From a virus, in the IMG/VR virus record IMGVR_UViG_3300006037_000005, positions 32,001-96,000 of that record: a DNA stretch of 64,000 bases; one strand, 5' to 3'. Every line of letters starts with the position of its first letter. Position 1 is the first letter of the stretch. The translations under genes were made by a program, and so were the position numbers. The notes beneath the pieces are model-generated. The model was not told the origin of the DNA. It did not search any database and saw only the letters and a program-made list of their open reading frames with translations. Shown here piece by piece: positions 8,443 to 55,099 of this stretch.

Positions 8443-10056
8443 TTAATCAGAATCTTTGTTTATGTATACATAACCCTCAATATCCTTTAGCATATCTAAG
8501 TCTATTGGTTGATCACCATAATATTTTTTGACAAGTTTACAGATATTTTTAATAGATCTACCTGTAATGTTTTTGAAATGTTCTGTTATCAATGGTAATT
8601 GACCATTTTTTATCTCAATATCATAATTATCCAATAAAACATTCCATAACTTTGTGAGTTCTTCATCTTTGGGAACACCATATTCAACAATTGCTGTTGC
8701 TCTTGATAAAATCGCATCATCAACCGAACTTGCTCTGTTGGTGGTCATAAACAATAGACCATTGTAATATTCAAGTGTTCTAAGAAATGTACAGACTACA
8801 GCATTTCTGTGCAGATCTTGATCTCTTGATTGTATATAAACATCGGCTTCATCAATAAGTAAGACAGCACCCCATCTTGATGCTCTTTTTAGAACTGCTT
8901 CAAGATTTTTCTCAAGATCATCTATCTTGATACCAAGCTGATCTGATTGTACTTTATATAGAGGTTTTTCCATTATTTCAGAATAGATTTCTGCAGATAA
9001 TGTTTTACCAGTACCAGGTATACCTTTACAGATGATAATAGTTCCACCTGTTTTACCAGACACAATATCTTCGAAATTATCTTTTGTGTTCAAAGTTAAT
9101 ATCTCTATTAACTTATTGATGTTTGGTGGTAAAACAAGTTTTTCTTTTAACTTTGGGTTATAGACATATTCTTCAAGAGATTCAGTGTGTATCCAAAAAT
9201 CTCTGTGTTTGCTCAAAGAAAACATATAAACAAAAGGATGAGTTGGAACTATATGATCTACATCTGTCTCAATGTCTTTATCCCAAAATACTGAATTAAC
9301 ATAATTGTTCGGTATTTTGTTTGTGATAGTATCCATATTGTTAACAAAATTCATATAAGAACCATCACCAACTGTTTTGTTTATACCACCCCATCTATCA
9401 TATTGTATTATAATTTTGGATTTATATTGTTTACCTATGGATTCAACTATATTCTTATATTTTCCATATTGATTAAAGAAAATCTTTCGGATTTCGGGGT
9501 TTTCTTTATAATAACCTTTTGATTCCAAAATTTCTGATACTGTTTTACCAGATACAATATCAGAAGAATAAAATGTGATATCAGTCTTTCTCTCCTCCAC
9601 GCAAGCAATATGTCTCAATGATATTTGAACATATGCTGGACTTTCTTTTTCCGCTGGTTTGTATATTATGCTATTTACATAATAAGGAAGTGGTATGTCT
9701 ACATCATTTATGTTTTGGATTTTATATAGATAATAGTCCAAAGAATCATTTTTAATATATTGTCTTAACGCATCTCTTAACGCATCAAGTCTTTTGGGTA
9801 CTACCTTATCTACATTTGATTTAATGGACTTCAACATTGATATCTGTTGTAATATTGAATTGAATCCAGATTCGGTAGCAACATTGGCTTTTGCCATTTC
9901 CTGCAATGCATCCATAAAATCATCATCGAGTTTATCAGAATTGATAGATACTACATTGCTATCATTGTTCCATGATATACAGCCATCTAAATATCTTGAT
10001 TGAAATCCTTTTGATTTCAATTCTTTTATAGTCTTTATTGTCAATTTTAATTCCAT
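8443..10056 (-). CDS. AAA+ ATPase
   Basis: Walker A GIPGTGKT, Walker B LLIDEAD, sensor-1 FMTTNR, Arg finger DDAILSR. Confidence 0.9.
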   Translation of the reverse strand: MELKLTIKTIKELKSKGFQSRYLDGCISWNNDSNVVSINSDKLDDDFMDALQEMAKANVATESGFNSILQQISMLKSIKSNVDKVVPKRLDALRDALRQYIKNDSLDYYLYKIQNINDVDIPLPYYVNSIIYKPAEKESPAYVQISLRHIACVEERKTDITFYSSDIVSGKTVSEILESKGYYKENPEIRKIFFNQYGKYKNIVESIGKQYKSKIIIQYDRWGGINKTVGDGSYMNFVNNMDTITNKIPNNYVNSVFWDKDIETDVDHIVPTHPFVYMFSLSKHRDFWIHTESLEEYVYNPKLKEKLVLPPNINKLIEILTLNTKDNFEDIVSGKTGGTIIICKGIPGTGKTLSAEIYSEIMEKPLYKVQSDQLGIKIDDLEKNLEAVLKRASRWGAVLLIDEADVYIQSRDQDLHRNAVVCTFLRTLEYYNGLLFMTTNRASSVDDAILSRATAIVEYGVPKDEELTKLWNVLLDNYDIEIKNGQLPLITEHFKNITGRSIKNICKLVKKYYGDQPIDLDMLKDIEGYVYINKDSD

Positions 10057-25024: not shown

Positions 25025-26140
25025 TCATAGATTAAAAGTTTTAGTTTCAATATACTCTCTTAATTGTATGAAACCTTTATAATTTTTACACCAACCAAAA
25101 TTGTTTGGATCTGTTATCTTACCTCTACAGTAGCTATTATATTCATCAGTAGACATAGATTTGGCACAATGTTGCAAAGGACTATTGTGATTTTGTTTAA
25201 TTAAATTATCAAAAAGTTTAAAATCATTTTCATAATTATGTTTGTCTGGATGGCCAACTGTTGTATAAGAAACCCTTGCACATCTTGCTGTTGCAATCTT
25301 AATTTTTGCTTTCACGAAATTATCTTTTGAAAACTCCGATTTAGATTTTAGGATTTCAACAAGTTTTGTATTATCAATATCATCACCAAAAGGTGTGTGC
25401 CATTCAGATGATTCAAGTATTTTTGGGGTTGAGTTATTGTAAGCATCATACATATCTTCTGCCAAAGATGATATATGTATTTCTGCCATCCCATCATTCA
25501 TAGATAACCAATCTGTATCTGACCATTCGGAAATTTTCTCATAATCGGACAAACCGTTTTTGATACTGGACCAATGTTTTTTAGCCTCTTCCCTACTCTT
25601 ATACCTAAGATCATTTTCTTTACCAACATATTGATAGTATTGTGGACATCTTAGATTATAAAAATTTTTTAAAGCAGATTCAGTGGTTGTACAAATAACT
25701 GTTTGCCACATGAAACTTTCCAATAATCTATTGGAAATCTGCTTGGTAAGACCCATGGAATCAAGATATTTAGCATTTTTAACTGCATCATTTCTTGCTA
25801 TTAACCATCTATCTTGTAATCTTTCGATATCACAAATTGTTTCACCACCAACCAAATTTTCGATACCATCTGATTCAGTGAAATATTCTGAACCCTGCAT
25901 ACCTTTGTGTTGTTTTTGCCAGGCTATTGGTATGAATGGATCTTCCTCTACAACAGATAACATCTTGCTGAATGGTATAGCCCTAGAAGAACTTGAATTC
26001 TTTGAAAACATATTGTGTGTATTGAGTTCAGCAAGAACTATTCTTGGTAAAACACAAACAAAAGATATCAAATCCTCCCCACCAGATATTGATTTACTGT
26101 GCGCTACAATTTTGGCTGAAATTTTTGTTTTATTATTCAT
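25025..26140 (-). CDS. thyX: Flavin-dependent thymidylate synthase (ThyX/Thy1 family, phage type)
   Basis: PRIVLAELNTHNMFSKNSSSSRAIP, KQISNRLLE, NFYNLRC, ARCARVSY, HNSPLQH. Confidence 0.85.
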   Translation of the reverse strand: MNNKTKISAKIVAHSKSISGGEDLISFVCVLPRIVLAELNTHNMFSKNSSSSRAIPFSKMLSVVEEDPFIPIAWQKQHKGMQGSEYFTESDGIENLVGGETICDIERLQDRWLIARNDAVKNAKYLDSMGLTKQISNRLLESFMWQTVICTTTESALKNFYNLRCPQYYQYVGKENDLRYKSREEAKKHWSSIKNGLSDYEKISEWSDTDWLSMNDGMAEIHISSLAEDMYDAYNNSTPKILESSEWHTPFGDDIDNTKLVEILKSKSEFSKDNFVKAKIKIATARCARVSYTTVGHPDKHNYENDFKLFDNLIKQNHNSPLQHCAKSMSTDEYNSYCRGKITDPNNFGWCKNYKGFIQLREYIETKTFNL

Positions 26141-26578: not shown

Positions 26579-27571
26579 CTAGCAATACAAATCTATTTTC
26601 CTTTCATCTGATCTGAAACCATGATTAAACGAACATCTGAAAGAATTCGATATTAATTTTTCAATTTGATCATCGCTAACACCACAAAATTCCTTCAAAA
26701 TTTTGAATTCTTTTCTAATAGAGGTCTGTAAAAAAGAAAATCCGTCAGTATTTATAGTATAAAGAATTTTATACTCATTAAGTTTATCAAAAATGTATTT
26801 AAAATCCTCAATGGCAGTAACACAATCAGTTACTATATTTGATGTTGGGCAAATTTCAAGGCAAATACCTTTTTCCGATACAAGTTCCAAATGTTTGTCA
26901 TTATCTACAATACGAATACCATGCCCTATTCTATCAATTTTTATGTTGTTTAGCACAAAATCCAGTTCATCGGAAGAGCCTCTGGTTTCACCAGCATGTA
27001 TTGTTATTCCAATGTCTGTAGATTCTAAAGATTTAAAGACCTCAAGGTGTGTGTCAAAATTTTTATCTTTGAATTCTCCAGACATATCAAATCCAACTAT
27101 ACCCATCTTTGAATATTTATATGCTTTATCTGCTAATATCAAAGAATTTTCTTTGTTGAAATTTCTTGCTGTTTCTATTATGATACCAATTTTTATTGGA
27201 TATATAGATTCTGCTTTCATTTTGCCTTTTATAGCAGATAGTATGATAGCATCTAAATCATAGAGGCCAGAAAAATTCCTAAGCATTGGATTAAATCTGA
27301 ACTCAATATTAGTAACATTGTGGTTTATATAGAGATTAGAGGCTGATCTATAAACGGATAATTCAACACCATATGGTGTTGATTGTATCTTCTGTGTTAG
27401 ATTGAATTTTTCTAGATATTTGCTATGATCTATTTTATCAGAGAGATAAACAATTTTCTCGAATTCATTATAATCCTTGTATGGTAGCGCTATACCCTGT
27501 TCGTGAGCAATTTGCCACAAATCTTCTGCAGAGCATGAAGATCCAAGGTGGCTGTGTAAATCAGAATACAT
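26579..27571 (-). CDS. Adenosine/AMP deaminase family protein
   Basis: Metal-binding DLHSHLG, TIHAGE, RIGHG, EICPTSN, INTDG. Confidence 0.9.
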   Translation of the reverse strand: MYSDLHSHLGSSCSAEDLWQIAHEQGIALPYKDYNEFEKIVYLSDKIDHSKYLEKFNLTQKIQSTPYGVELSVYRSASNLYINHNVTNIEFRFNPMLRNFSGLYDLDAIILSAIKGKMKAESIYPIKIGIIIETARNFNKENSLILADKAYKYSKMGIVGFDMSGEFKDKNFDTHLEVFKSLESTDIGITIHAGETRGSSDELDFVLNNIKIDRIGHGIRIVDNDKHLELVSEKGICLEICPTSNIVTDCVTAIEDFKYIFDKLNEYKILYTINTDGFSFLQTSIRKEFKILKEFCGVSDDQIEKLISNSFRCSFNHGFRSDERKIDLYC

Positions 27572-35369: not shown

Positions 35370-36260
35370 TCACCAGAGTTTGAATTCTTCTTTGCCATCT
35401 TTTATATTTTTAAATATATGTGCTATAACATCAACAGTCCATGAATCACCGATAACATGGGCAGATTTACACCAAGAATTTAATATTTTTGTATAACCTA
35501 TCGGTAGAGTTTGGGCAATCTCCATTTCCTCTATGGTTGGATATCTGTAAATGTCTTTATCTTTTATTATAATAGAATCGGATGGTTTCTTGTGCATAGC
35601 TTTCATTATGCAAGGTATCTTCAATGATTCTGTTGTAATTATTCTTATCCTTGGCCTTTTCAGCTTGTTCAATTGTGTTCCTTTTAAAACCAAAGATTCA
35701 TCATATTGTTTGGAAACATTATCTTTAAAAAGGATATTCCTATCTTTAGGAATATCTATTCCAGGGATATTAGTCCAATAAAGTCTCCCTCTCGTCTGAC
35801 AAGAAACCAAAGAAGAACATATCCTAATTGGCTCGACACCAAGTATGCTTGTTATATGATCTTTCCATTGTGTTTTCATCACAACATTTTCAAGAAAGAA
35901 ATATTTTGGCTTCGTTTCTTCAAGAATTCTAACATACTGATAAAACAAACCAGATTTTCCATCAAAGCCAGTCATATCACCAGAGAAACTGAAACTTTGG
36001 CAAGGAGAGCCACCGATCAAAAGATCTATTTTTGGTAAATCTTGACCTTTCACTCCCCTCACATCGCCAAGTTGTATTGTATTAGGATGGTGGTGTTGAG
36101 TTACTTTGATTGAATCCTTGTGGATTTCCGAAGCAAAATAATTCTTAAATCTAATATGTGCTTTCAATAAAGCAAGTTGCCCAACTGATATACCATCAAA
36201 TAAAGAAACAACATTTTCTATATCATATTGCATCATGAGTACCCATGTGTCTAATTTCAT
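35370..36260 (-). CDS. DNA (cytosine-5) methyltransferase
   Basis: Motif I SLFDG, IV GGSPCQ, VI LENV, VIII QTRGRLYW, X IGDSW. Confidence 0.9.
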   Translation of the reverse strand: MKLDTWVLMMQYDIENVVSLFDGISVGQLALLKAHIRFKNYFASEIHKDSIKVTQHHHPNTIQLGDVRGVKGQDLPKIDLLIGGSPCQSFSFSGDMTGFDGKSGLFYQYVRILEETKPKYFFLENVVMKTQWKDHITSILGVEPIRICSSLVSCQTRGRLYWTNIPGIDIPKDRNILFKDNVSKQYDESLVLKGTQLNKLKRPRIRIITTESLKIPCIMKAMHKKPSDSIIIKDKDIYRYPTIEEMEIAQTLPIGYTKILNSWCKSAHVIGDSWTVDVIAHIFKNIKDGKEEFKLW

Positions 36261-41567: not shown

Positions 41568-42590
41568 TTACCATAGAGGATCTTTGTGTCCATGAATAAT
41601 ACCATTGAATATATGTGCTATCACATCAACGGTCCAGCCATTACCTAGCATTTTATATCTTTGGTTGTCTGAGACACCCTGTGTGTATCCATCTTCAACT
41701 GTCTGTAGTCTTTCACATTCTGTTGGTGTTAATTTTCTTATAAAATTATCTGTTAAAACACCATGCCTATCGACAGCAGTTAATGTATAGAATTTTGATT
41801 TTGGTGGTTTAAATCTACCTCCATTGTGCCTAGATTTCAATTTGTCTGGTACTAAGCAAGGTATGGCATATAAACCTGTTTTTGCACCAAGACCACCACC
41901 ATTTGCTGATAATGTTACAGATTTATAATGTATGTTATACACTCTATTCCCTTGTGAATCTGTTCCAATAAAAGCAATCTTTCTTCTATCAACTTCATTA
42001 TCACAAATTATTATAGATCTTTCAGTATTTATGATATATTTTTGATCAACTTCCTCCTCAAGTATATCCTCCACTGTTAGTTTCGATTTTTCATATTCAA
42101 GATTCACTGGTATGTTCGTCCAATACCACCTTATTCTTTCCTGTGCTGAAAAATCTGTAGAATCTATTCTGATTGGATAAACTCCGACCAACTTTGTTAT
42201 GACATCCAAATACTCCTCTTTCATATTAACATTTTCAAGAAAGAAATATTTTGGTTGAAGTTCGTTCTTTAATCTCAGAAATTCAAAAAACAATTTACTC
42301 CTAGGATCATCAAAGTTTAACTGCTTACCAGCAAAACTAAAACCTTGGCATGGGCTTCCTCCCATCAAAAGGTCTATTTTTGGCAGATCTGTTGTCTTTA
42401 TATTTCTAACGTCACCAAGTTGTATTGTATTAGGAAAATTCTTTTGTGTGATAAAAATAGAAGATCTGCAAATTTCTGAGGCAAAGTATTGTTTGTATTT
42501 GATACCAATTTTGTTTAGTGCTATCTGCCCACACGACATACCATCAAAACATGATAAAACATTTTCTATTCCAAAATTCTGTTGCTCCAT
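41568..42590 (-). CDS. DNA (cytosine-5) methyltransferase (second paralog)
   Basis: SCFDGMSCGQ, GGSPCQGFS, LENV, QERIRWYW, RKLTPTECERLQ, LGNGW. Confidence 0.93.
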   Translation of the reverse strand: MEQQNFGIENVLSCFDGMSCGQIALNKIGIKYKQYFASEICRSSIFITQKNFPNTIQLGDVRNIKTTDLPKIDLLMGGSPCQGFSFAGKQLNFDDPRSKLFFEFLRLKNELQPKYFFLENVNMKEEYLDVITKLVGVYPIRIDSTDFSAQERIRWYWTNIPVNLEYEKSKLTVEDILEEEVDQKYIINTERSIIICDNEVDRRKIAFIGTDSQGNRVYNIHYKSVTLSANGGGLGAKTGLYAIPCLVPDKLKSRHNGGRFKPPKSKFYTLTAVDRHGVLTDNFIRKLTPTECERLQTVEDGYTQGVSDNQRYKMLGNGWTVDVIAHIFNGIIHGHKDPLW

Positions 42591-45126: not shown

Positions 45127-46251
45127 TTAAGAATTTGTTAAGAAATCAGCTGGAGTATAAACTTCATATCCAATGGAGAAAATATCTTTTATGATAGATT
45201 TGAATTTGTTGTATCCAAGTTTTTGTATTTCATCTGAATAGACGTGATATAAAGGGTTTTCAAAATATTTTTCGGCATTAGAATATCTAAGTATATCTTC
45301 TTTTTTATCTGAAAGTATTTTATTGGATTTCAATATATCAAAACGTTTTTCAGTCAAAAAATCATCGATATTTGATATAAAGAAACCGAATTTTTCTTTT
45401 ACCTTATCAACATTTGCCTTGCTAGTAGTCATACCGAACAACAAGTAATAATCCTTGTTATAGGATGTTCTAGAGATCTGAATGCTATAGCAAAGATTTT
45501 CGTCATATCTGAATATTTTGTAAAGTGGACTATTTAAGCCATCAGAAAAATAATCACAAATGAAAGATGAGAGATAATGATAACTTGATATTTTGTTGGT
45601 TAAAAATAATATTGGATAGAGGTCATCTGATTCTCCGATTCTAATGAAATCCGATTCATTAGATGGCCTTCTATCAGAAAGATCAAATTCGGTGAAGGAT
45701 TTTTTCTCAAAATTGGTCTCTAAATTTTTTGAAACATTTACTACTGAAGATGGATTTTCAAATATTGTTTTTAACCATTCATCGATTTTTGGTTTTGTGC
45801 AAGATCTTATATCTTCTATAGAACCTATTGGCATGTAATCACTAAAAACCTTCCTGTGAACATTCATCAACAGATTACCAAATGGTGAATCTGTTGAATC
45901 ATAATATTCTTGAATTATTATGTTCTTTTCTTTTTCTATAACTTCCTGAGAGAATTCTAGATTCAATATCCTTTTAAGAATTTCTTCTTTATGAAATGAT
46001 AGTTTATCTTCGAAACCTTTAAAATGGAAAACTATCTGTTCAGGAGAGGTGTAAGCATTCCATTCTATAAAATCTTTTTGTAAATCATCAAAGATATCAT
46101 TGAGGCTTTCACATATCAAATGTTCACAGATGTGAGAATATCCTCTAAAACCATAATACTCAACAGAGGAAGAACCATTATAAACTATCCAAAGAGAAGA
46201 TAGATCATTATTAGATTTTATGTTTATGATATTAGAAAGAGCAGAATCCAT
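45127..46251 (-). CDS. M16 (insulinase) family zinc peptidase
   Basis: Inverted zincin HxxEH (GYSHICEHL), NAYT, EKNIIIQE, YDENLCY. Confidence 0.88.
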   Translation of the reverse strand: MDSALSNIINIKSNNDLSSLWIVYNGSSSVEYYGFRGYSHICEHLICESLNDIFDDLQKDFIEWNAYTSPEQIVFHFKGFEDKLSFHKEEILKRILNLEFSQEVIEKEKNIIIQEYYDSTDSPFGNLLMNVHRKVFSDYMPIGSIEDIRSCTKPKIDEWLKTIFENPSSVVNVSKNLETNFEKKSFTEFDLSDRRPSNESDFIRIGESDDLYPILFLTNKISSYHYLSSFICDYFSDGLNSPLYKIFRYDENLCYSIQISRTSYNKDYYLLFGMTTSKANVDKVKEKFGFFISNIDDFLTEKRFDILKSNKILSDKKEDILRYSNAEKYFENPLYHVYSDEIQKLGYNKFKSIIKDIFSIGYEVYTPADFLTNS

Positions 46252-48285: not shown

Positions 48286-50592
48286 TTATAATTTTATTTG
48301 TTTTTCTGATAATACGAAATTCATATCAAGATCTAGACCATCAATCCTCATAGAAAGTTTAGAATTTTCGATTTCTGAGAATTCTGGAAACCATTTCCTT
48401 GAGAGGATCTGAGAAAATTTCATAACAGATATTTCATTCATTAGTTCCTTCTTCATGATGTTTACATCTTTCCTATAAAGATTTATCCAATCACCAAGAA
48501 TTTGGCTCTTGGTTTTTTCATCAAATTTAGATAAGACTTCCGAAGTGGATTCTTTTTTAAACGAATCTATAGTGGGCTTCATCAAAGATTCAGTTATTTT
48601 TAATGATTTACCATCTTCTATGCTTTTCATAACATCCTCAACTTTTGGCAAACTTGAGCATTTTGCTATTTTAACCTCCAAAGAAAGTGCTGTGTAAGTA
48701 TCCTTAGTTTCCTCTTTAATGGTTTCTGGACTATATCCATTGAATTGGGTAACACCAATTGATTCTAACCACACCTCTGCATCAGCACCATACTCTTTAA
48801 TAAAAGATTCTGAAATCTTCTTGTTATCAAAAACTACTTTGTCGTAATAACCAAGAACTTTATTCATTGCCTGCATTTTCAGTAATTCATAAGAAAGCTG
48901 GCCCAATTTTGTGGCTGAAATTGAATTGACTTGTTTCCTGTTTACTATCGGCAGAGATTCTAAATCCAATATAATAAAAAATGTTCCTGTTTCAAAATCA
49001 GTATCTTTCTCTGTATCTGATTTATATTCAACACCATTTGAGGTCAAGAATTTGAGATCATTAGCTGTACAAGAAATAGGTAATTTCTGAACATTCAAAA
49101 GACCATCTTTCAAAATGGTGTAATTTCTGTAGATAAAAGAGGGTAACTGAATTAAACCAAAATCGTTTTTTGGTAATTTAACCACACCATCATATCTTAC
49201 CCTAACAGAAATATTGGCTCTATCTTCGTTGTATACAAAATCTTTTACATTGTGGCCAACAGTTTTATCATAGACAAATTCAGCTTTAGAATCTGCGATT
49301 TCATCCATTGTGGCTTTCATATCTGAAAGATTCTTAACATCTTTCAATTTAGAAATATCAGATTCAGTTACTTTTGTATTAACATCAGATCTTTTTGCAC
49401 CAATTCTGTTGTATACAAAGTCTTTATGCCCAGGATAAAATAAAATCGTTTCTGAATCAGAGAGATAATTCAACAATGATAAAACAGAAAATTGATCCGC
49501 TTTGATCTGAATCTTTTCTTTTGTTACAAAAGGCAAGACCTCGTTCCCAAAAAGTATAGATTTTAAACGATCTCTGAATTCATTGAGTTTCTGTTTACCA
49601 TATGAATTTGTATAAGATTTCAACAATTCCTCACAACGAAGTTCCATAAGCAAATCATCAACTTCATCCGTTCTAAATTTATCAGATAGAACATAAGAGG
49701 CTAGCAACAATTGCTCATTCGTAATTTTACCAATTTCTATCGGTGCTTCAAAATCATTAACAATTTCAATAAAATCGATGAAATCGACATTTGATGGTAA
49801 TAGAACTTCAGAATTTTGAACAGAATAAATTAGAATTTGGTCATCAATCATAGTCCAAGCTATACCGAATTTTGGTTGTGTGCCGATATTGATGAGCGTT
49901 TTTGAACTTGATAAATTTGAATTTGAAAGTTTTGCATCAAATTCTGGTTCAAAACTTTCAAAATTGGAAGAAAATATTTTATCTCCACCACAAATTTCAG
50001 CCATTTCCTGCATAGCTTTTGTATCAGCATAATAGCCATATTCAACAAAAGTAGAAGATTGTAAAATTGGTACTAGAGATTTCAAGTTATCTCTAACATC
50101 AGACCAAGAACCTTGGTTATGATAACCATCAGACAAGAAAACCATCGAAAATAGGGAATTCGGTCTATTAACTGAGATTCTTTCAATTATTTCCTTTGCT
50201 ATCTTCAAAGGTGAATCAAATGAAGTCAGACCAACTGGTTTTAACCATCTATCAACTGCATCATTAAAATCTTTAAGATCTTTCAATGATTTAATTTCAA
50301 CTTCTTCTTTTAGAACACCTGCTTCATTTTTACCAGAAAACCAAACAACGGAAATTGTGTGACCATCTTTCATAACAGATGAAAGTTTGTTTTTCAAATG
50401 TCTTCTTATGTTAGAAAGTTCTGATGACATAGAACCAGAGACATCGACAACAAAGATGTGATTGATTGGTAAAACATTTGGTTCTGATTTTTGTAATTGA
50501 ATTCTCGTTAGAGAGAAATTACTAATTTGTTTTCTTACTACCACTGTTTGCATATTTAAAAATTTGATTTCTTGCTTTATCAAAACTGACAT
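48286..50592 (-). CDS. von Willebrand factor A domain protein
   Basis: MIDAS DVSGSMS, GLTSF, FLSDG, EYG. Confidence 0.85.
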   Translation of the reverse strand: MSVLIKQEIKFLNMQTVVVRKQISNFSLTRIQLQKSEPNVLPINHIFVVDVSGSMSSELSNIRRHLKNKLSSVMKDGHTISVVWFSGKNEAGVLKEEVEIKSLKDLKDFNDAVDRWLKPVGLTSFDSPLKIAKEIIERISVNRPNSLFSMVFLSDGYHNQGSWSDVRDNLKSLVPILQSSTFVEYGYYADTKAMQEMAEICGGDKIFSSNFESFEPEFDAKLSNSNLSSSKTLINIGTQPKFGIAWTMIDDQILIYSVQNSEVLLPSNVDFIDFIEIVNDFEAPIEIGKITNEQLLLASYVLSDKFRTDEVDDLLMELRCEELLKSYTNSYGKQKLNEFRDRLKSILFGNEVLPFVTKEKIQIKADQFSVLSLLNYLSDSETILFYPGHKDFVYNRIGAKRSDVNTKVTESDISKLKDVKNLSDMKATMDEIADSKAEFVYDKTVGHNVKDFVYNEDRANISVRVRYDGVVKLPKNDFGLIQLPSFIYRNYTILKDGLLNVQKLPISCTANDLKFLTSNGVEYKSDTEKDTDFETGTFFIILDLESLPIVNRKQVNSISATKLGQLSYELLKMQAMNKVLGYYDKVVFDNKKISESFIKEYGADAEVWLESIGVTQFNGYSPETIKEETKDTYTALSLEVKIAKCSSLPKVEDVMKSIEDGKSLKITESLMKPTIDSFKKESTSEVLSKFDEKTKSQILGDWINLYRKDVNIMKKELMNEISVMKFSQILSRKWFPEFSEIENSKLSMRIDGLDLDMNFVLSEKQIKL

Positions 50593-51092: not shown

Positions 51093-51539
51093 TCAGCCTT
51101 TAACAGTCCCTTCTGGTACATCATATTCATCAGCAAGTTCTTTATATTTATAGCCATCAATTATCTTAAAAAAGATTTCTGAATGTGTTTTGTTTGGATA
51201 GGATTTTATAAAATCTTCAAGCATTTTGGTGTCGAAATTGTTAACTGTTACACAAGATAGATCCATGGAATTTTCTTGATATGAGATATCAGAACATATT
51301 GGTGTTTTTGAAGACTTTCTATATCTATCAACAGACATATTTTTCATAACAGTAAAATACCAAGATTTGAAATACCCTTTCTCATCAACATAAGTATCAA
51401 GATATGACAAACATTTCAAGTTGGTATCCTGTATTAAATCTTCTGCTTGATCCCTATCGAAATTGCAAAGTTTAGATGCATATCTTTTAATATAATCTTT
51501 ATGGATCTTTACATTTGACACAAATTCTTCTTTCGTCAT
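51093..51539 (-). CDS. ECF sigma factor, truncated by TGA within the region 4.2 recognition helix
   Basis: AEDLIQDTNLK, FKSWYFTVMKN, GYKYKELADEYDVPEGTVKG*VFKIK. Confidence 0.85.
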   Translation of the reverse strand: MTKEEFVSNVKIHKDYIKRYASKLCNFDRDQAEDLIQDTNLKCLSYLDTYVDEKGYFKSWYFTVMKNMSVDRYRKSSKTPICSDISYQENSMDLSCVTVNNFDTKMLEDFIKSYPNKTHSEIFFKIIDGYKYKELADEYDVPEGTVKG

Positions 51540-51856
51540 GATTTCGTAAAATGTGTAAATTCAGACAAATAGTTATTGAATTCAATTTTTATGCACAATT
51601 CTTCATCCTTTGAAACAAAAATAAAAAGAAATGTTCCATCCAAACGATTAAATTCACAATCTTCGTGGCATATATCATATAATTCTAATTCATATTGATC
51701 AAGGAAATCATCCAAATTTCTGTAAACATCTGATTCATATTTAAATTTTTTTATGGATTCTTGCTCTTGCTTTATAATATCCTTGAACAATTTTTCAAAA
51801 TTGAAATATCTGTTGATATTCATCATGATGTTTTTATTTCAAAATTCTTAAATAAA

Positions 51857-51915: not shown

Positions 51916-53151
51916 TCAAATCTCAAATCTATCCTCTGTATATTTACCAGTTCCAATCCAACGCATTTTAACATTGGAGAATTCTTTTGAAGATTTTATG
52001 ACAGAATAAATATTTTCTTCTAACCAATCTTTGAATTTATCGGTAATAATATCTGTTCTCTCATTCATATTCCAATCCACATGGTTAGCAAAATTTACTG
52101 ATATGAATATTTTATGTGGTGTTTGATTGAAGATTATTGAATCTTCCAAATTTTTTTTAGAAAATGTTGCAACTCTTCTTGGTAATTTTGTTAAAGTTGT
52201 TAATGATGTTAAATCTTCGTCTGCACCACAACCAAGTCTAACATCTTCCCAAGTTATTTCTTTTTGATCATCATACCAATCACCAGAATATGAATCAACC
52301 TCCTGATAGTCGTAGTTACCAGATTGAACTTCAGCCCAAGTCAAGAATTTTCTTGAAACAATATCAATATATTTCTTGCTATTGATACGAATCGGAAATG
52401 TTCTAGTATTTAATGCTATATTGCCAACAACTGTGACAGGCAAAAACATATCATCAAGACCAGCAGAAACAGTCACATTTCTTGATGTGGTATTCGTACC
52501 AAACAAACCATAGCCATTAGAAAGAGGAAATCCTTGAGCAAGTTCCAACAAACCAGACTGACCTTGGGAAAGTCTCGTTAAAATTTCCCTTGGAACATCA
52601 CAGATAAACTCAGCAAGTTCTGGGACATCTTTAGCCAAAAGTTGATTTTTATCTCTCAGCACACGTCTTGCTCTAGTGCATCCAACACCACTTGATGTGC
52701 TACCAGTTGCATAAGTACCCTTGTGTTCTTCAATGGCTGGTTTACCATCAAAACCATATTTACCTTCTTCATAGAGTCTGTCGATATCTTGAACAATAGC
52801 TGTCATTGGAGAGATACCAATTTTGTTACGAGGGATACCTGTAATTTCAATTTCATTGAAAAATGCTTTCAAATCTATGATGCCACCTTGACCAATATAC
52901 ATTTTTTCGAATTCGTAATGGCGATGTGCATTTGAATTAAATTGTTTATAAACAATTTCTTTGCTACCATTGGCTCTATCGATTACAGTATGTGATGCTT
53001 GTGGTGCAAATGTATTACAAACAAATTGGAATTTACCAACATTTTGCATCGTAATAAAAGAGCCAAGGCTACCTTTGCCTGCAGAACCAGCACATGAATC
53101 GAGTATTACCGATAATTTACCTGATAAGAAAAATTCGTCTTCTTTTTTCAT
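51916..53151 (-). CDS. purZ: PurZ-like N6-succino-2-amino-deoxyadenylate synthase (PurA paralog)
   Basis: DSCAGSAGKG (Ser in place of PurA catalytic Asp13), ASHT, GST, AQG, TSRNVT, RTFPIR, TTLTKLPRR, VNFAN; likely start MKKEDEFF at 53151. Confidence 0.85.
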   Translation of the reverse strand: MKKEDEFFLSGKLSVILDSCAGSAGKGSLGSFITMQNVGKFQFVCNTFAPQASHTVIDRANGSKEIVYKQFNSNAHRHYEFEKMYIGQGGIIDLKAFFNEIEITGIPRNKIGISPMTAIVQDIDRLYEEGKYGFDGKPAIEEHKGTYATGSTSSGVGCTRARRVLRDKNQLLAKDVPELAEFICDVPREILTRLSQGQSGLLELAQGFPLSNGYGLFGTNTTSRNVTVSAGLDDMFLPVTVVGNIALNTRTFPIRINSKKYIDIVSRKFLTWAEVQSGNYDYQEVDSYSGDWYDDQKEITWEDVRLGCGADEDLTSLTTLTKLPRRVATFSKKNLEDSIIFNQTPHKIFISVNFANHVDWNMNERTDIITDKFKDWLEENIYSVIKSSKEFSNVKMRWIGTGKYTEDRFEI

Positions 53152-53263
53152 TTCTAATTTTTTTGGTGTTTCTTCTATTATTGCTTTACTACATGGGGGT
53201 TTCAATATAAATGGTGTCAAGAAACTTCAGACGTTCCAATGGTAAATAAAGAAAAGGAACAGC

Positions 53264-55099
53264 ATGAACACCAATGATATTAAAATAGGAAAAGAATTTA
53301 TTGAAATTATACCGAACCAAGAATATTCCTTGAAGAAAGCATATCTTGGTTTTTATTGCCCCAAATGTTTAAAAGAAAAAACCATATGTTTATTGTCTGT
53401 TTTAAAAGATTATACCAATTCTGTTGGTTGTGGTTGTAGAAAGAAAATAGGGAAGCCTTTTATAAAATCAAAACCATTATCTGAATCAGAATGGGAAGAA
53501 ATATTTTCAAAAATACCCATACAGCCTTTGAATTTTAATGATCTTCTTGGTTTTACAATATCGGCTAAAAAACAAATCCCTTTTATTTGTGGTTGTGGTA
53601 AGATTTTTGAATATAATATTGGAAAGATAACAAGTTCCCATACAAAAACTTGTGGTAAATGCAATATAGTAAATCCAAAAGAAATCTCTTACAGCAACGG
53701 CATTTTGTATAATGGTACTTCTGATTCGATATCTTCAACTTTATCAAAAAATGAAGATTTTATTTGTGGTTGTGGTAATCAATTTAAAGCACCCTTTAAT
53801 TGTGTTGTTTCGGGGAAACAAAAATCTTGTGGTAAATGCAAAATTCTTTCATACCCATCATATATCGGAAAAACATTTGGTAGACTTAAAATTTTAGAAT
53901 TCATTGGATCAAAAGGCAGAATAAATGATCCAAAGAAATCGGAGAATTTCTTCAAATGTGAATGTTCGTGTGGCAATGTAAAAGAAATAACAACATCTGC
54001 AATATTAAGAAATGGATCAAAAGGAAAAATTTCTTGTGGTAAATGTTCAAATGTTGCAAAAGAAATTAGAATGGCTAATCCTTTTCCAGGTTTGCATGAT
54101 TACAAAAAATTGGAACTTTGGTTTGAAACACAATTCATAAAACCAATTGTTCCTATCAATGAATACACAATAAACAAAAACAAAATACCAATGCACTGTA
54201 AATTGTGCGGTGACGATTTTGATACATCTTTATATGATATTAAAAGAGGCAAAATTTTGAGTTGTGGTTGTTTATCAAACAGAATATCTCAAATGAACAC
54301 CGAAGTTGGAACATTTATAAAAGAACTTGGCTTTGAAATCCAATATGAACATTATCTTGGTGAAAATTTACATTCTGATATTTTTGTTAAGAATAAAAAC
54401 CTTGTGATAGAAATGAACGGAATTTATTATCACAAAGAGGCTACAAGATTAAGTGAGATTAAAAAATTCAATAAAGCAAAAGAAATTGGATATGATTTTT
54501 TAATGTTCTATGAAGATGAATGGAGAGATAAGAGAGATATTTGCAAAAATCTCATTAAACAAAAACTTGGTATAAATTCTGATATTATAAAATTAAGACC
54601 AAAGGATTGTGAAGTTAGAATTGTGAAATCACCATTGGTTAAAGAATTGTTTGAAAAATTCCATATACAAGGTTACAGACCATCAAGTTTTAATATAGCT
54701 GTCTATCATAAAGATAATCTAATAGCCTGTATGGCAATTAATAGACCATCAAGACAAAATATAAAAGAAGATTATGAAATTTCAAGAATGGTTTGTGATA
54801 CGAAATATAGGGTGAACGGACTTTGGTCTTTTTTGTTCAAATATATTGAAAGAACAAATCTGTTTACTGGAACTATTACAACATTTTCTGAAAACAGAAT
54901 ATCAAACGGAAACATATATTTAAATATAGGAATGGTGCATTGTGGTAATGTGAAATCAGATTATTATTGGTGTGACACAAGGAACAGATTCCACAAATCT
55001 ATGATGAGAGGTAAAAATGAAACTTTGATTAACAAAGAAAAAGGCTACCACAAGATTTTTGATTTGGGAAAGAAGAAATTCTCAACAGAGATCTTGTGA
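53264..55099 (+). CDS. Hef-like free-standing endonuclease: Zn-ribbon repeats + Vsr/DUF559-type nuclease + C-terminal Mom-like GNAT domain
   Basis: Repeated CxCG...SCGxC; DIFVKNKNLVIEMNGIYYH..EDEW; HIQG, YEISRM, SENRISNGNIY, IFDLGKKKF. Confidence 0.75.
   Translation: MNTNDIKIGKEFIEIIPNQEYSLKKAYLGFYCPKCLKEKTICLLSVLKDYTNSVGCGCRKKIGKPFIKSKPLSESEWEEIFSKIPIQPLNFNDLLGFTISAKKQIPFICGCGKIFEYNIGKITSSHTKTCGKCNIVNPKEISYSNGILYNGTSDSISSTLSKNEDFICGCGNQFKAPFNCVVSGKQKSCGKCKILSYPSYIGKTFGRLKILEFIGSKGRINDPKKSENFFKCECSCGNVKEITTSAILRNGSKGKISCGKCSNVAKEIRMANPFPGLHDYKKLELWFETQFIKPIVPINEYTINKNKIPMHCKLCGDDFDTSLYDIKRGKILSCGCLSNRISQMNTEVGTFIKELGFEIQYEHYLGENLHSDIFVKNKNLVIEMNGIYYHKEATRLSEIKKFNKAKEIGYDFLMFYEDEWRDKRDICKNLIKQKLGINSDIIKLRPKDCEVRIVKSPLVKELFEKFHIQGYRPSSFNIAVYHKDNLIACMAINRPSRQNIKEDYEISRMVCDTKYRVNGLWSFLFKYIERTNLFTGTITTFSENRISNGNIYLNIGMVHCGNVKSDYYWCDTRNRFHKSMMRGKNETLINKEKGYHKIFDLGKKKFSTEIL

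Follow-up and report, generated by a model that had tools for sequence, protein, structure and literature searches.

Does a very AT-rich, T4-like phage replace the adenine of its DNA with 2-aminoadenine (Z), and with which enzymes? The question is raised by a gene at positions 51916-53151 of a 64,000-nucleotide stretch of viral DNA (the window), which corresponds to C1:32001-96000 of the single linear, 126,598-bp IMG/VR record IMGVR_UViG_3300006037_000005. In the original prediction, made from the letters of the window, the gene was read as purZ, whose product takes the first step towards 2-aminodeoxyadenosine triphosphate (dZTP), in a jumbo phage without the usual datZ/mazZ cluster. The reading favoured here, at a probability of roughly 60%, is that a diverged PurZ-type enzyme starts a largely phage-encoded route to dZTP, with adenine drained without DatZ. 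Judged from its genes, Z-DNA is plausible in this AT-rich T4-like phage, which may represent a new kind of modified-DNA phage. Coordinates prefixed with C1 refer to the full record, all others to the window.

51916-53151, minus strand: predicted PurZ-type succino-amino-deoxyadenylate synthetase homologue (P0001), 411 amino acids (aa)

Gene model and fold

The reading frame (51919-53151, minus strand) encodes 411 aa without an internal stop and is closed by a stop codon at 51916-51918. The longest open reading frame (ORF) starts upstream, with a TTG at 53220. Since the ATG at 53151 aligns with the N-termini of 17 homologues, 51916-53151 was taken as the right gene model. P0001 was matched by Pfam PF00709 (35 bits, cut-off 27, residues 50-167 only) and by phrog_1211, the PurZ family of the PHROGs library (7e-19). 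An AlphaFold2 model built from an 18-sequence alignment (A1) reached a predicted local distance difference test score (pLDDT) of 90.9 and a predicted template modelling score (pTM) of 0.89. Foldseek returned 43 chains at E<=0.001, and all listed ones were adenylosuccinate synthetases, PurZ or PurZ0. The gene is intact and its product has the adenylosuccinate-synthetase fold, as had been predicted.

The best Foldseek match was the PurZ (DgsS) of phage phiVC8 (6tnh, 1e-22, template modelling (TM) score 0.85), with Pyrococcus horikoshii PurA (5k7x, 1.6e-22, TM 0.86), S-2L PurZ (7odx, 2.8e-22, TM 0.81) and PurZ0 (3.7e-19) following. A phmmer search of the PDB gave the same picture, with E-values of 5e-16 for the phiVC8 PurZ chains (6fm1/6fko/6tnh), 1.6e-15 (60.2 bits) for P. 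horikoshii PurA, 4e-13 for S-2L PurZ and 0.91 for PurZ0 (7vf6). Structure prediction thus settles the fold but does not separate PurZ from archaeal PurA. Since raw similarity does not separate them either, the decision falls to residues, phylogeny and gene context.

Active-site residues

Residues were read from a table of 75 aligned sequences that included E. coli PurA (NC_000913.3), whose numbering is used here. In P0001, the position of the catalytic Asp13 is occupied by Ser (GSAGKG), T271 and V273 are both replaced by Ile (RTFPIRI), and T300, G302 and R303 are replaced by Leu, Lys and Leu (TLTKLPRR). In the GTP pocket, K331 and D333 have given way to Phe and Asn (VNFAN versus TKLDV), and a 'TSR' motif follows T239-S240. 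The 'TSR' and seven of these eight substitutions (D13S, T271I, T300L, G302K, R303L, K331F and D333N) are states found in the PurZ proteins of phiVC8, S-2L and SH-Ab 15497, and the TKLPRR stretch is identical to that of S-2L PurZ. The four replacements originally named (Ser for Asp13, Ile for Thr271, Leu for Arg303 and NF for TKLD) were all recovered in the alignment with E. coli PurA. Among the query and its 150 best relatives, a P-loop was found by regular expression in 121 sequences; it carried Ser in 121 of 121 and Asp in none. Section 24 of PMC12884076 gives a conservation of 99% for Asp13 among PurA-group proteins, and of 100% for Ser among 147 phage PurZ/PurZ0 sequences.

Twelve positions of phiVC8 PurZ were also compared, most of them taken from section 8 of bioRxiv 10.1101/2025.10.22.683976, which names residues that distinguish the PurZ of dZ contigs from PurA. 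P0001 agrees with phiVC8 PurZ at S14, P233, Y244, W252, T262 and F295; it has Thr for S273 and Cys for I34 (phiVC8 numbering), both as in S-2L, and His for Y298, as do three other relatives in the alignment. It departs at F12 (Ala), P144 (Lys) and G256 (Arg). The ATP-type donor pocket NFxN[YH] is present, with K331 and D333 gone, F295 retained as Phe and Y298 read as His. The Ser at position 13, this pocket and the six residues shared with phiVC8 PurZ support the assignment of P0001 as PurZ-type, as predicted, rather than PurA or PurZ0.

Base and sugar recognition were considered separately. In the base pocket, S14 and T262 are retained and F12 is Ala; in S-2L, the backbone of the Tyr equivalent to F12 lines this pocket (PMC8342488). 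Features bearing on deoxyribose selectivity are the replacement of R303 by Leu, a loop Ile instead of Val, and an insert much longer than that of S-2L. The insertion of ~30 aa originally noticed after RTFPIRI is real: it follows RTFPIRIN and amounts to ~31 aa relative to phiVC8 PurZ (query 257 to 288, chain 257 to 259). Its length varies across the clade, being far longer in some relatives. The S-2L study ties the loop next to the insert position to exclusion of the 2'-hydroxyl (PMC8342488, section 8).

Relatives and phylogenetic position

A HMMER scan of 1.84 billion representatives returned 913 proteins at E<=1e-3, 55 of them at E<=1e-30. In 50,697 phage records P0001 had 63 matches, the best of which was Flavobacterium phage MaF61 (37% identity over 98% of the query); the others were canonical PurZ phages at 25-29% identity. 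A pattern scan of IMG/VR yielded 209 relatives, of which 80 were kept. Forty of these form the clade of P0001, with at least 36% identity to it (67% for L031, whose match is partial), and lie on contigs of up to 341 kb. The other 40, canonical loci at ~26-31% identity, lie on contigs of at most 57 kb in all cases except one (L055), which is on a 307-kb contig. P0001 belongs to a distinct clade that is almost confined to large phage contigs and also includes the cultured phage MaF61.

In BLASTP comparisons, P0001 scored 77-103 bits with five PurZ proteins, 37-38 bits with PurZ0 and 27-30 bits with bacterial PurA. The clade is farther from PurZ (25-29% identity, 77-103 bits) than PurZ0 is (32-37%, 103-121 bits). 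A tree of 75 rows was calculated with IQ-TREE (quick search, LG+C20+F+G4), comprising the query, MaF61, 17 full-length and four intermediate clade representatives, 40 other representatives sampled at random (330-420 aa), five named PurZ, four named PurZ0 and one Nanoarchaeota protein; the outgroup was the PurA of E. coli and Staphylococcus. Rows that were fragmentary, long or intein-bearing were excluded, as were the representatives not drawn in the sampling. In this maximum-likelihood (ML) tree, a 23-row query clade (Shimodaira-Hasegawa-like approximate likelihood ratio test, SH-aLRT, 99) lies within a 37-row group (97) together with the PurZ proteins of S-2L, phiVC8 and SH-Ab 15497. PurZ0 forms a separate clade (support 100), the other 67 rows being supported at 98. 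On these sequence comparisons, it is a fair statement that the clade appears to be a third, deeply diverged subfamily of Ser-type enzymes with the ATP-pocket states of PurZ.

Inteins (Intein_splicing/Hint) split three clade homologues of 750-800 aa (P0002, P0008 and P0010). They occupy two or more sites, near query positions ~150-160 and ~232; P0002 and P0010 also contain LAGLIDADG endonucleases. Inteins typically sit in conserved, important phage genes. The sole clade member among 185,579 species genomes (L110; 52% identity over residues 8-279) lies on a 441-kb contig (CAVTYW010000027.1) of a Pirellulales metagenome-assembled genome; this contig could come from a prophage or from a giant phage binned in error, and gives no clue to the host.

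The large contig with a canonical-type PurZ (L055/G019; 307 kb, 98% complete, 28% identity to the query) has a strong match to family-A polymerase and a YfbR-like/DatZ-like ORF that passes the Pfam cut-off, with neither PurB nor a deaminase. Because of this gene set, canonical Z-clusters also seem to occur in very large phages.

Gene context across the clade

Flanks of 10 kb were compared between the 40 canonical and the 40 clade loci. Of the canonical loci, 38 had a DatZ homologue, against none of the clade loci, in line with the predicted lack of a linked datZ/mazZ pair. Adenylosuccinate lyase (PurB) was found at 13 of the 40 clade loci, guanylate kinase at six, a MazG protein of the record's type at six and an adenosine deaminase at two; at the 40 canonical loci the count was zero for each of them. 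Different accessory enzymes had been expected, and the clade does carry others: besides PurB and guanylate kinase, these are a MazG-like enzyme, an HD nucleotidase of the Dmp-like kind and an adenosine deaminase.

Complete records were searched for 22 large contigs, 21 from the clade and G019. PurB was present in 9/22 (in five of the eight that are at least 90% complete), guanylate kinase in 8/22 and MazG in 7/22. YfbR-like matches occurred in 7/22, above the cut-off in G019 only; five weak ones (in G006, G007, G011, G012 and G015) are homologues of the Dmp-like gene. The deaminase family was found in 10/23 records, including records of 246-341 kb without PurB, and all seven clade genomes at least 90% complete encode PurB, a deaminase or both. 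In G013 (150.6 kb, terminal repeats), a single strand carries the purZ-like gene, purB and MazG in a span of 6.1 kb, the MazG gene being 4 kb from the purZ-like gene.

As a baseline, PurB, guanylate kinase, the Dmp-like protein and the deaminase were searched by tblastn against the 50,697 phage records. PurB homologues occurred in eight records: MaF61, the PurZ0 phages Hiyaa (two records) and Galactica, and others that look like host DNA. The deaminase occurred in seven records, none of them from a PurZ phage. The Streptomyces phages Hiyaa (MK279841/NC_048139) and Galactica (MT316461) have an annotated PurB-like lyase, and Hiyaa also a PurA-like (PurZ0-type) synthetase; by analogy, they offer an earlier example of a phage supplying its own lyase to a putative Z-pathway.

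Helper genes in the record

The record encodes PurB (C1:108795-110168, plus strand, 457 aa; ASL_C 2e-28, Lyase_1 1.9e-26, SSTMPQKINP signature) and two guanylate kinases, the first at C1:123840-124436 (minus strand; PF00625 3.3e-16) and the second at C1:22783-23475 (minus strand; phrog_1815 1.1e-31). The end of the first overlaps the start of a gene for a 214-aa MazG-domain protein (C1:123203-123847, minus strand; Pfam 6.7e-5, phrog_229 2.4e-15), which is 38 kb away from the purZ-type gene. This protein has no tblastn similarity to S-2L MazZ. A Dmp-like HD protein is encoded outside the window at C1:15874-16473 (minus strand; L107; phrog_318, 'deoxyribonucleoside 5' monophosphate phosphatase', 2.3e-23). 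Its family shows the pattern H...HD...E..GD.P.P.K and aligns to the DatZ profile over 30 columns only (hhalign probability 90%); the record's own copy reads LHHESFTEAMGFGD, compared with LLHDA.EAY.GD in six relatives.

The original observation that HD and MazG-like genes are missing held for the window, in which neither domain was matched. The record's only matches lie outside it (C1:25207-25476 and C1:123302-123499), and counting the Dmp-like protein there are a MazG-like gene and two HD genes elsewhere in the record. The other HD protein (G000:C1:25054-25635, L001:1348-1929, also outside the window; 193 aa) was rejected as a DatZ because it matches small alarmone (ppGpp/ppApp) hydrolases (6yvc 3.4e-4; phrog_990); its motif is HDxxED. 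A stringent-response or counter-defence function is possible for it, going by these matches. When the DatZ, MazZ, DpoZ and PrimPol of S-2L and phiVC8 were searched against the record by tblastn, nothing besides PurZ fell below E 0.39.

Two further genes of interest lie in the window, one ORF apart:

26579-27571, minus strand: adenosine-deaminase-family gene, 330 aa (Pfam A_deaminase PF00962 1.2e-45)
25025-26140, minus strand: thymidylate synthase, ThyX-like (phrog_85 2.1e-47; Pfam Thy1 2.9e-6)

The best PDB matches of the deaminase are adenosine deaminases (3e-19), with Cad1-type chains among the weaker ones. Its metal ligands are retained and its motif reads NTDGF. Within the family (this gene and relatives L116-L124), the canonical TDD(P) motif is TDG in the T4-like subgroup (this record, G006, G011, G014 and G015), TDS in G020 and TDDP in the jumbo subgroup (G001, G010, G016 and G017).

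Proposed pathway

In the known Z-phages, the steps after PurZ are performed by host PurB and GMP kinase (bioRxiv 10.1101/2025.10.22.683976; PMC12783734). In the large-phage lineage, these later steps would be phage-encoded instead of borrowed from the host. From fold, active-site states, gene co-occurrence and clustering we infer the substrate of every enzyme below, as well as whether, and to what extent, Z takes the place of A. P0001 would most likely join deoxyguanosine monophosphate (dGMP) and aspartate, with ATP or dATP rather than GTP, to form N6-succino-2-amino-dAMP (dSMP), the first committed step toward dZTP. The phage PurB would then convert dSMP to dZMP, and the two guanylate-kinase paralogues would phosphorylate dZMP to dZDP. 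The MazG-like pyrophosphohydrolase, whose translation is coupled to that of one kinase, may supply dGMP from dGTP, remove dATP, or both. The most economical reading would be a self-sufficient route, dGTP to dGMP to dSMP to dZMP to dZDP. The split T4-type family-B polymerase would incorporate Z opposite T. Adenine may be drained without DatZ by the Dmp-like HD 5'-deoxynucleotidase followed by the adenosine-deaminase-family enzyme (dAMP to dA to dI), a sequence suggested by the co-occurrence of the two genes.

Opposing evidence and alternative explanations

Several findings weigh against this pathway or parts of it. The NCBIfam PurZ model NF038379 scored P0001 at 101.9 bits (residues 14-342), short of its cut-off of 300 and barely higher than the archaeal PurA model NF003295 (91.9 bits, residues 13-257 only), and phiVC8 PurZ and P. 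horikoshii PurA score alike in the PDB sequence and fold searches. The pocket differs from that of characterised PurZ by F12A, N38Q, G40S and V273I, and the long insert adjoins the loop by which the 2' position is read. The ML tree nests the clade within PurZ, whereas an approximately unbiased (AU) test allows a basal position, as a topology holding it with the PurA outgroup was not rejected (delta lnL 16.1, p 0.315). Archaeal Asp13 PurA had been sought with a profile of Glu-containing relatives (A2), but the 120 matches listed were all PurZ-like, and the outgroup was therefore bacterial PurA only. PurB was not found in three of the eight near-complete records. Guanylate kinase occurs in 29 of the 50,697 phage records, mostly large phages outside the PurZ matches; it therefore carries little weight, and was rejected as a marker specific to PurZ phages. 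Searches of the full record for DatZ/YfbR-like (PF12917), DUF550, dUTPase, DUF5664 and NDT proteins gave no match at E<=10. The record's Dmp-like copy has LHHE where relatives have LLHD, and its activity is uncertain because the HD pair may have lost its Asp or carry it at a displaced position. Finally, adenosine deaminases can also turn 2,6-diaminopurine nucleosides into guanosine, so that the deaminase could work against Z.

The alternative that survives best, although unlikely, is that P0001 acts on another 6-oxopurine nucleotide, namely GMP (the ribonucleotide later being reduced by a phage reductase), dIMP or a modified dGMP, so that dZMP would not arise by the PurZ reaction. The four pocket differences, the 31-aa insert after the loop tied to 2'-hydroxyl exclusion in S-2L (PMC8342488, section 8), the greater distance of the clade than of PurZ0 from PurZ (25-29% versus 32-37% identity) and the ribonucleotide reductase subunits encoded by MaF61 are in keeping with such a substrate. 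Ser13, T262, the loss of R303 and the Ile, bulkier than Val, at the 2'-facing position nevertheless fit the dGMP/deoxy pattern, and the partner genes are those that a dZ pathway needs.

It is also quite improbable that the phage makes dZ nucleotides, or alters purine pools, without using Z as a bulk base, be it for counter-defence, for supply or in low partial substitution. Profile and tblastn searches of the record found no dATP-specific hydrolase, the record carries the alarmone-hydrolase-like HD protein (6yvc 3e-4) and a deaminase whose family also serves in defence systems (its weaker PDB matches include Cad1-type chains), and its family-B polymerase has no known Z preference. PurB, however, is nearly restricted to PurZ-type phages, and the clustering of purZ, purB and MazG resembles a dedicated biosynthetic route.

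An ordinary adenylosuccinate synthetase acting with PurB as an auxiliary pair to raise the conversion of IMP to AMP for a genome of 70% A+T would cover both steps of the AMP branch and suit the AT-richness and the PurA-like fold and sequence scores, but is very unlikely given Ser at a position that is Asp in 99% of the PurA group and Ser in 100% of phage PurZ/PurZ0 (PMC12884076, section 24), Phe and Asn at the GTP-specifying K331 and D333, and scores of only 27-30 bits with bacterial PurA. The dZTP route starting from a PurZ-type enzyme is the reading we prefer.

Phage record and neighbouring genes

The record is ~60% complete according to CheckV, and the closest complete relatives measure 129-167 kb; the term 'jumbo' used in the original prediction is not borne out by these sizes. 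Its AT-richness was confirmed, the G+C content being 28-32% across the window. For the proposed Bacteroidota host, the sole basis is the 37% identity to a Flavobacterium phage protein. The T4-like character found further evidence in a UvsX-like recombinase, a DnaB-like helicase and a split family-B DNA polymerase in the record, and in a T4-type terminase in a relative. The polymerase is encoded outside the window by two adjacent ORFs (514 and 397 aa; G000:C1:118901-121642), and in relatives G012-G015 its halves are tens of kb apart. A search of the full record for family-A polymerase (PF00476) gave no match, the replicase found being the split family-B enzyme instead of a DpoZ or PrimPol.

The genes next to P0001 and two methyltransferase genes are as follows.

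53264-55099, plus strand: free-standing HNH/homing endonuclease (phrog_559 4.9e-48, phrog_3339 1.3e-45)
51093-51539, minus strand: small sigma-70-family factor (Sigma70_r2 1.2e-11; phrog_1740 1.4e-19)
35370-36260, minus strand: C5-cytosine DNA methyltransferase (Pfam DNA_methylase 2.4e-33)
41568-42590, minus strand: second C5-cytosine DNA methyltransferase (Pfam DNA_methylase 1.1e-44; phrog_116 7.5e-66)

The sigma factor had been recognised correctly as a neighbour; it is the second ORF downstream of the PurZ-type gene, with a 96-aa ORF (51536-51826) between them. The nuclease, originally likened to Hef, reads instead as an HNH/homing endonuclease (in Pfam, it gave a weak REase_MTES_1575 match only, 0.006). 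Lying head-to-head with the PurZ-type gene, it is probably a mobile element outside the pathway. The C5-cytosine methyltransferases would give the phage a second DNA-modification function. Searches of the 126.6-kb record for methyltransferases of the Dam type (PF02086) or the N6/N4 type (PF01555) had no match; two C5-cytosine enzymes with neither of these types would fit, if weakly, a genome whose adenines are handled otherwise. Other window genes encode a protein of 768 aa whose N-terminus carries a von Willebrand A domain (48286-50592, minus strand), an ATP-dependent-protease-like protein (8443-10056, minus strand; phrog_29662 7.7e-91) and an M16 (insulinase-type) peptidase (45127-46251, minus strand). 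A search with the major capsid protein alone found no relatives among viral contigs.

Comparison with known systems

In the literature consulted, proven Z-genomes come from siphoviruses and podoviruses of small size, whose helpers are DatZ/MazZ or DutZ/DmtZ and whose replicase is of family A or a PrimPol; sections 25-26 of PMC12884076 distinguish seven Z-phage groups. In the accessible text of that paper, the words PurB, adenylosuccinate lyase, guanylate kinase, myovir-, jumbo and Flavobacter- do not occur. A literature search for PurZ in large myoviruses found no paper, the supplementary tables of PMC12884076 and PMC13269007 being outside its scope. If the favoured reading is true, Z-DNA would extend to T4-like replication machinery and to the very AT-rich genomes of phages of 110-340 kb, where the third hydrogen bond per A:T pair would alter DNA stability most. 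It would also mean a new way to exclude adenine, and the phage PurB, kinase and family-B polymerase would be useful for producing Z-DNA in cells. The broadest form of the proposal is tentative and on balance doubtful: a large T4-like myovirus/jumbo lineage that includes MaF61 would write Z with its own PurZ-type enzyme, PurB, guanylate kinase and MazG-like protein, remove adenine by dephosphorylation and deamination, and replicate with a family-B polymerase, as a third, independently assembled solution to Z-DNA.

P0001 shares with the PurZ (DgsS) of phiVC8, S-2L and SH-Ab 15497 the fold, Ser13, the NFxN[YH] pocket, the loss of R303 and a place in the same group of the ML tree. It differs from them in its low identity (only 25-29%), in falling below the NCBIfam cut-off, in the 31-aa insert, and in F12A, N38Q and G40S. 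Its clade occurs in large phages, T4-like or jumbo, that have a family-B or another polymerase, whereas canonical PurZ occurs in sipho- and podoviruses of 38-47 kb with DpoZ or PrimPol. Unlike canonical purZ, the clade genes have no linked DatZ or MazZ (DatZ at 0/40 versus 38/40 loci). The PurZ0 of actinophages (Wayne, Frizzle, Hiyaa and Benry; 7vf6 is that of Archimedes) has Ser13 and the fold in common with P0001 but retains Asp333 in the GTP pocket (MLD/FAD, against FAN in P0001). It stands at 23% identity, 37-38 bits and a PDB phmmer E-value of 0.91 from P0001, in a separate tree clade (support 100), and its partners DutZ, DmtZ and DUF5664 have no match in the record. The archaeal short PurA (P. 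horikoshii, 5k7x; NF003295) equals PurZ in its sequence and fold scores to P0001; PurA has Asp13 (E. coli and Staphylococcus rows; for the group, PMC12884076, section 24) where P0001 has Ser.

The closest counterpart is MaF61, a cultured myovirus of 167,814 bp (PMC13269007), whose ORF141, a 'putative adenosuccinate synthetase' (PQ858689), belongs to the clade of P0001 with 37% identity. MaF61 likewise encodes an adenylosuccinate lyase, a guanylate kinase, a nucleotide pyrophosphohydrolase and a Dmp-like hydrolase (ORF97); it has no deaminase match at E<=1e-5, whereas the present record has one. The synthetase of MaF61 is annotated as an ordinary one, and the accessible text of PMC13269007 makes no mention of DNA modification. 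Because this member of the clade is in culture (PMC13269007), the question of Z-DNA is directly testable.

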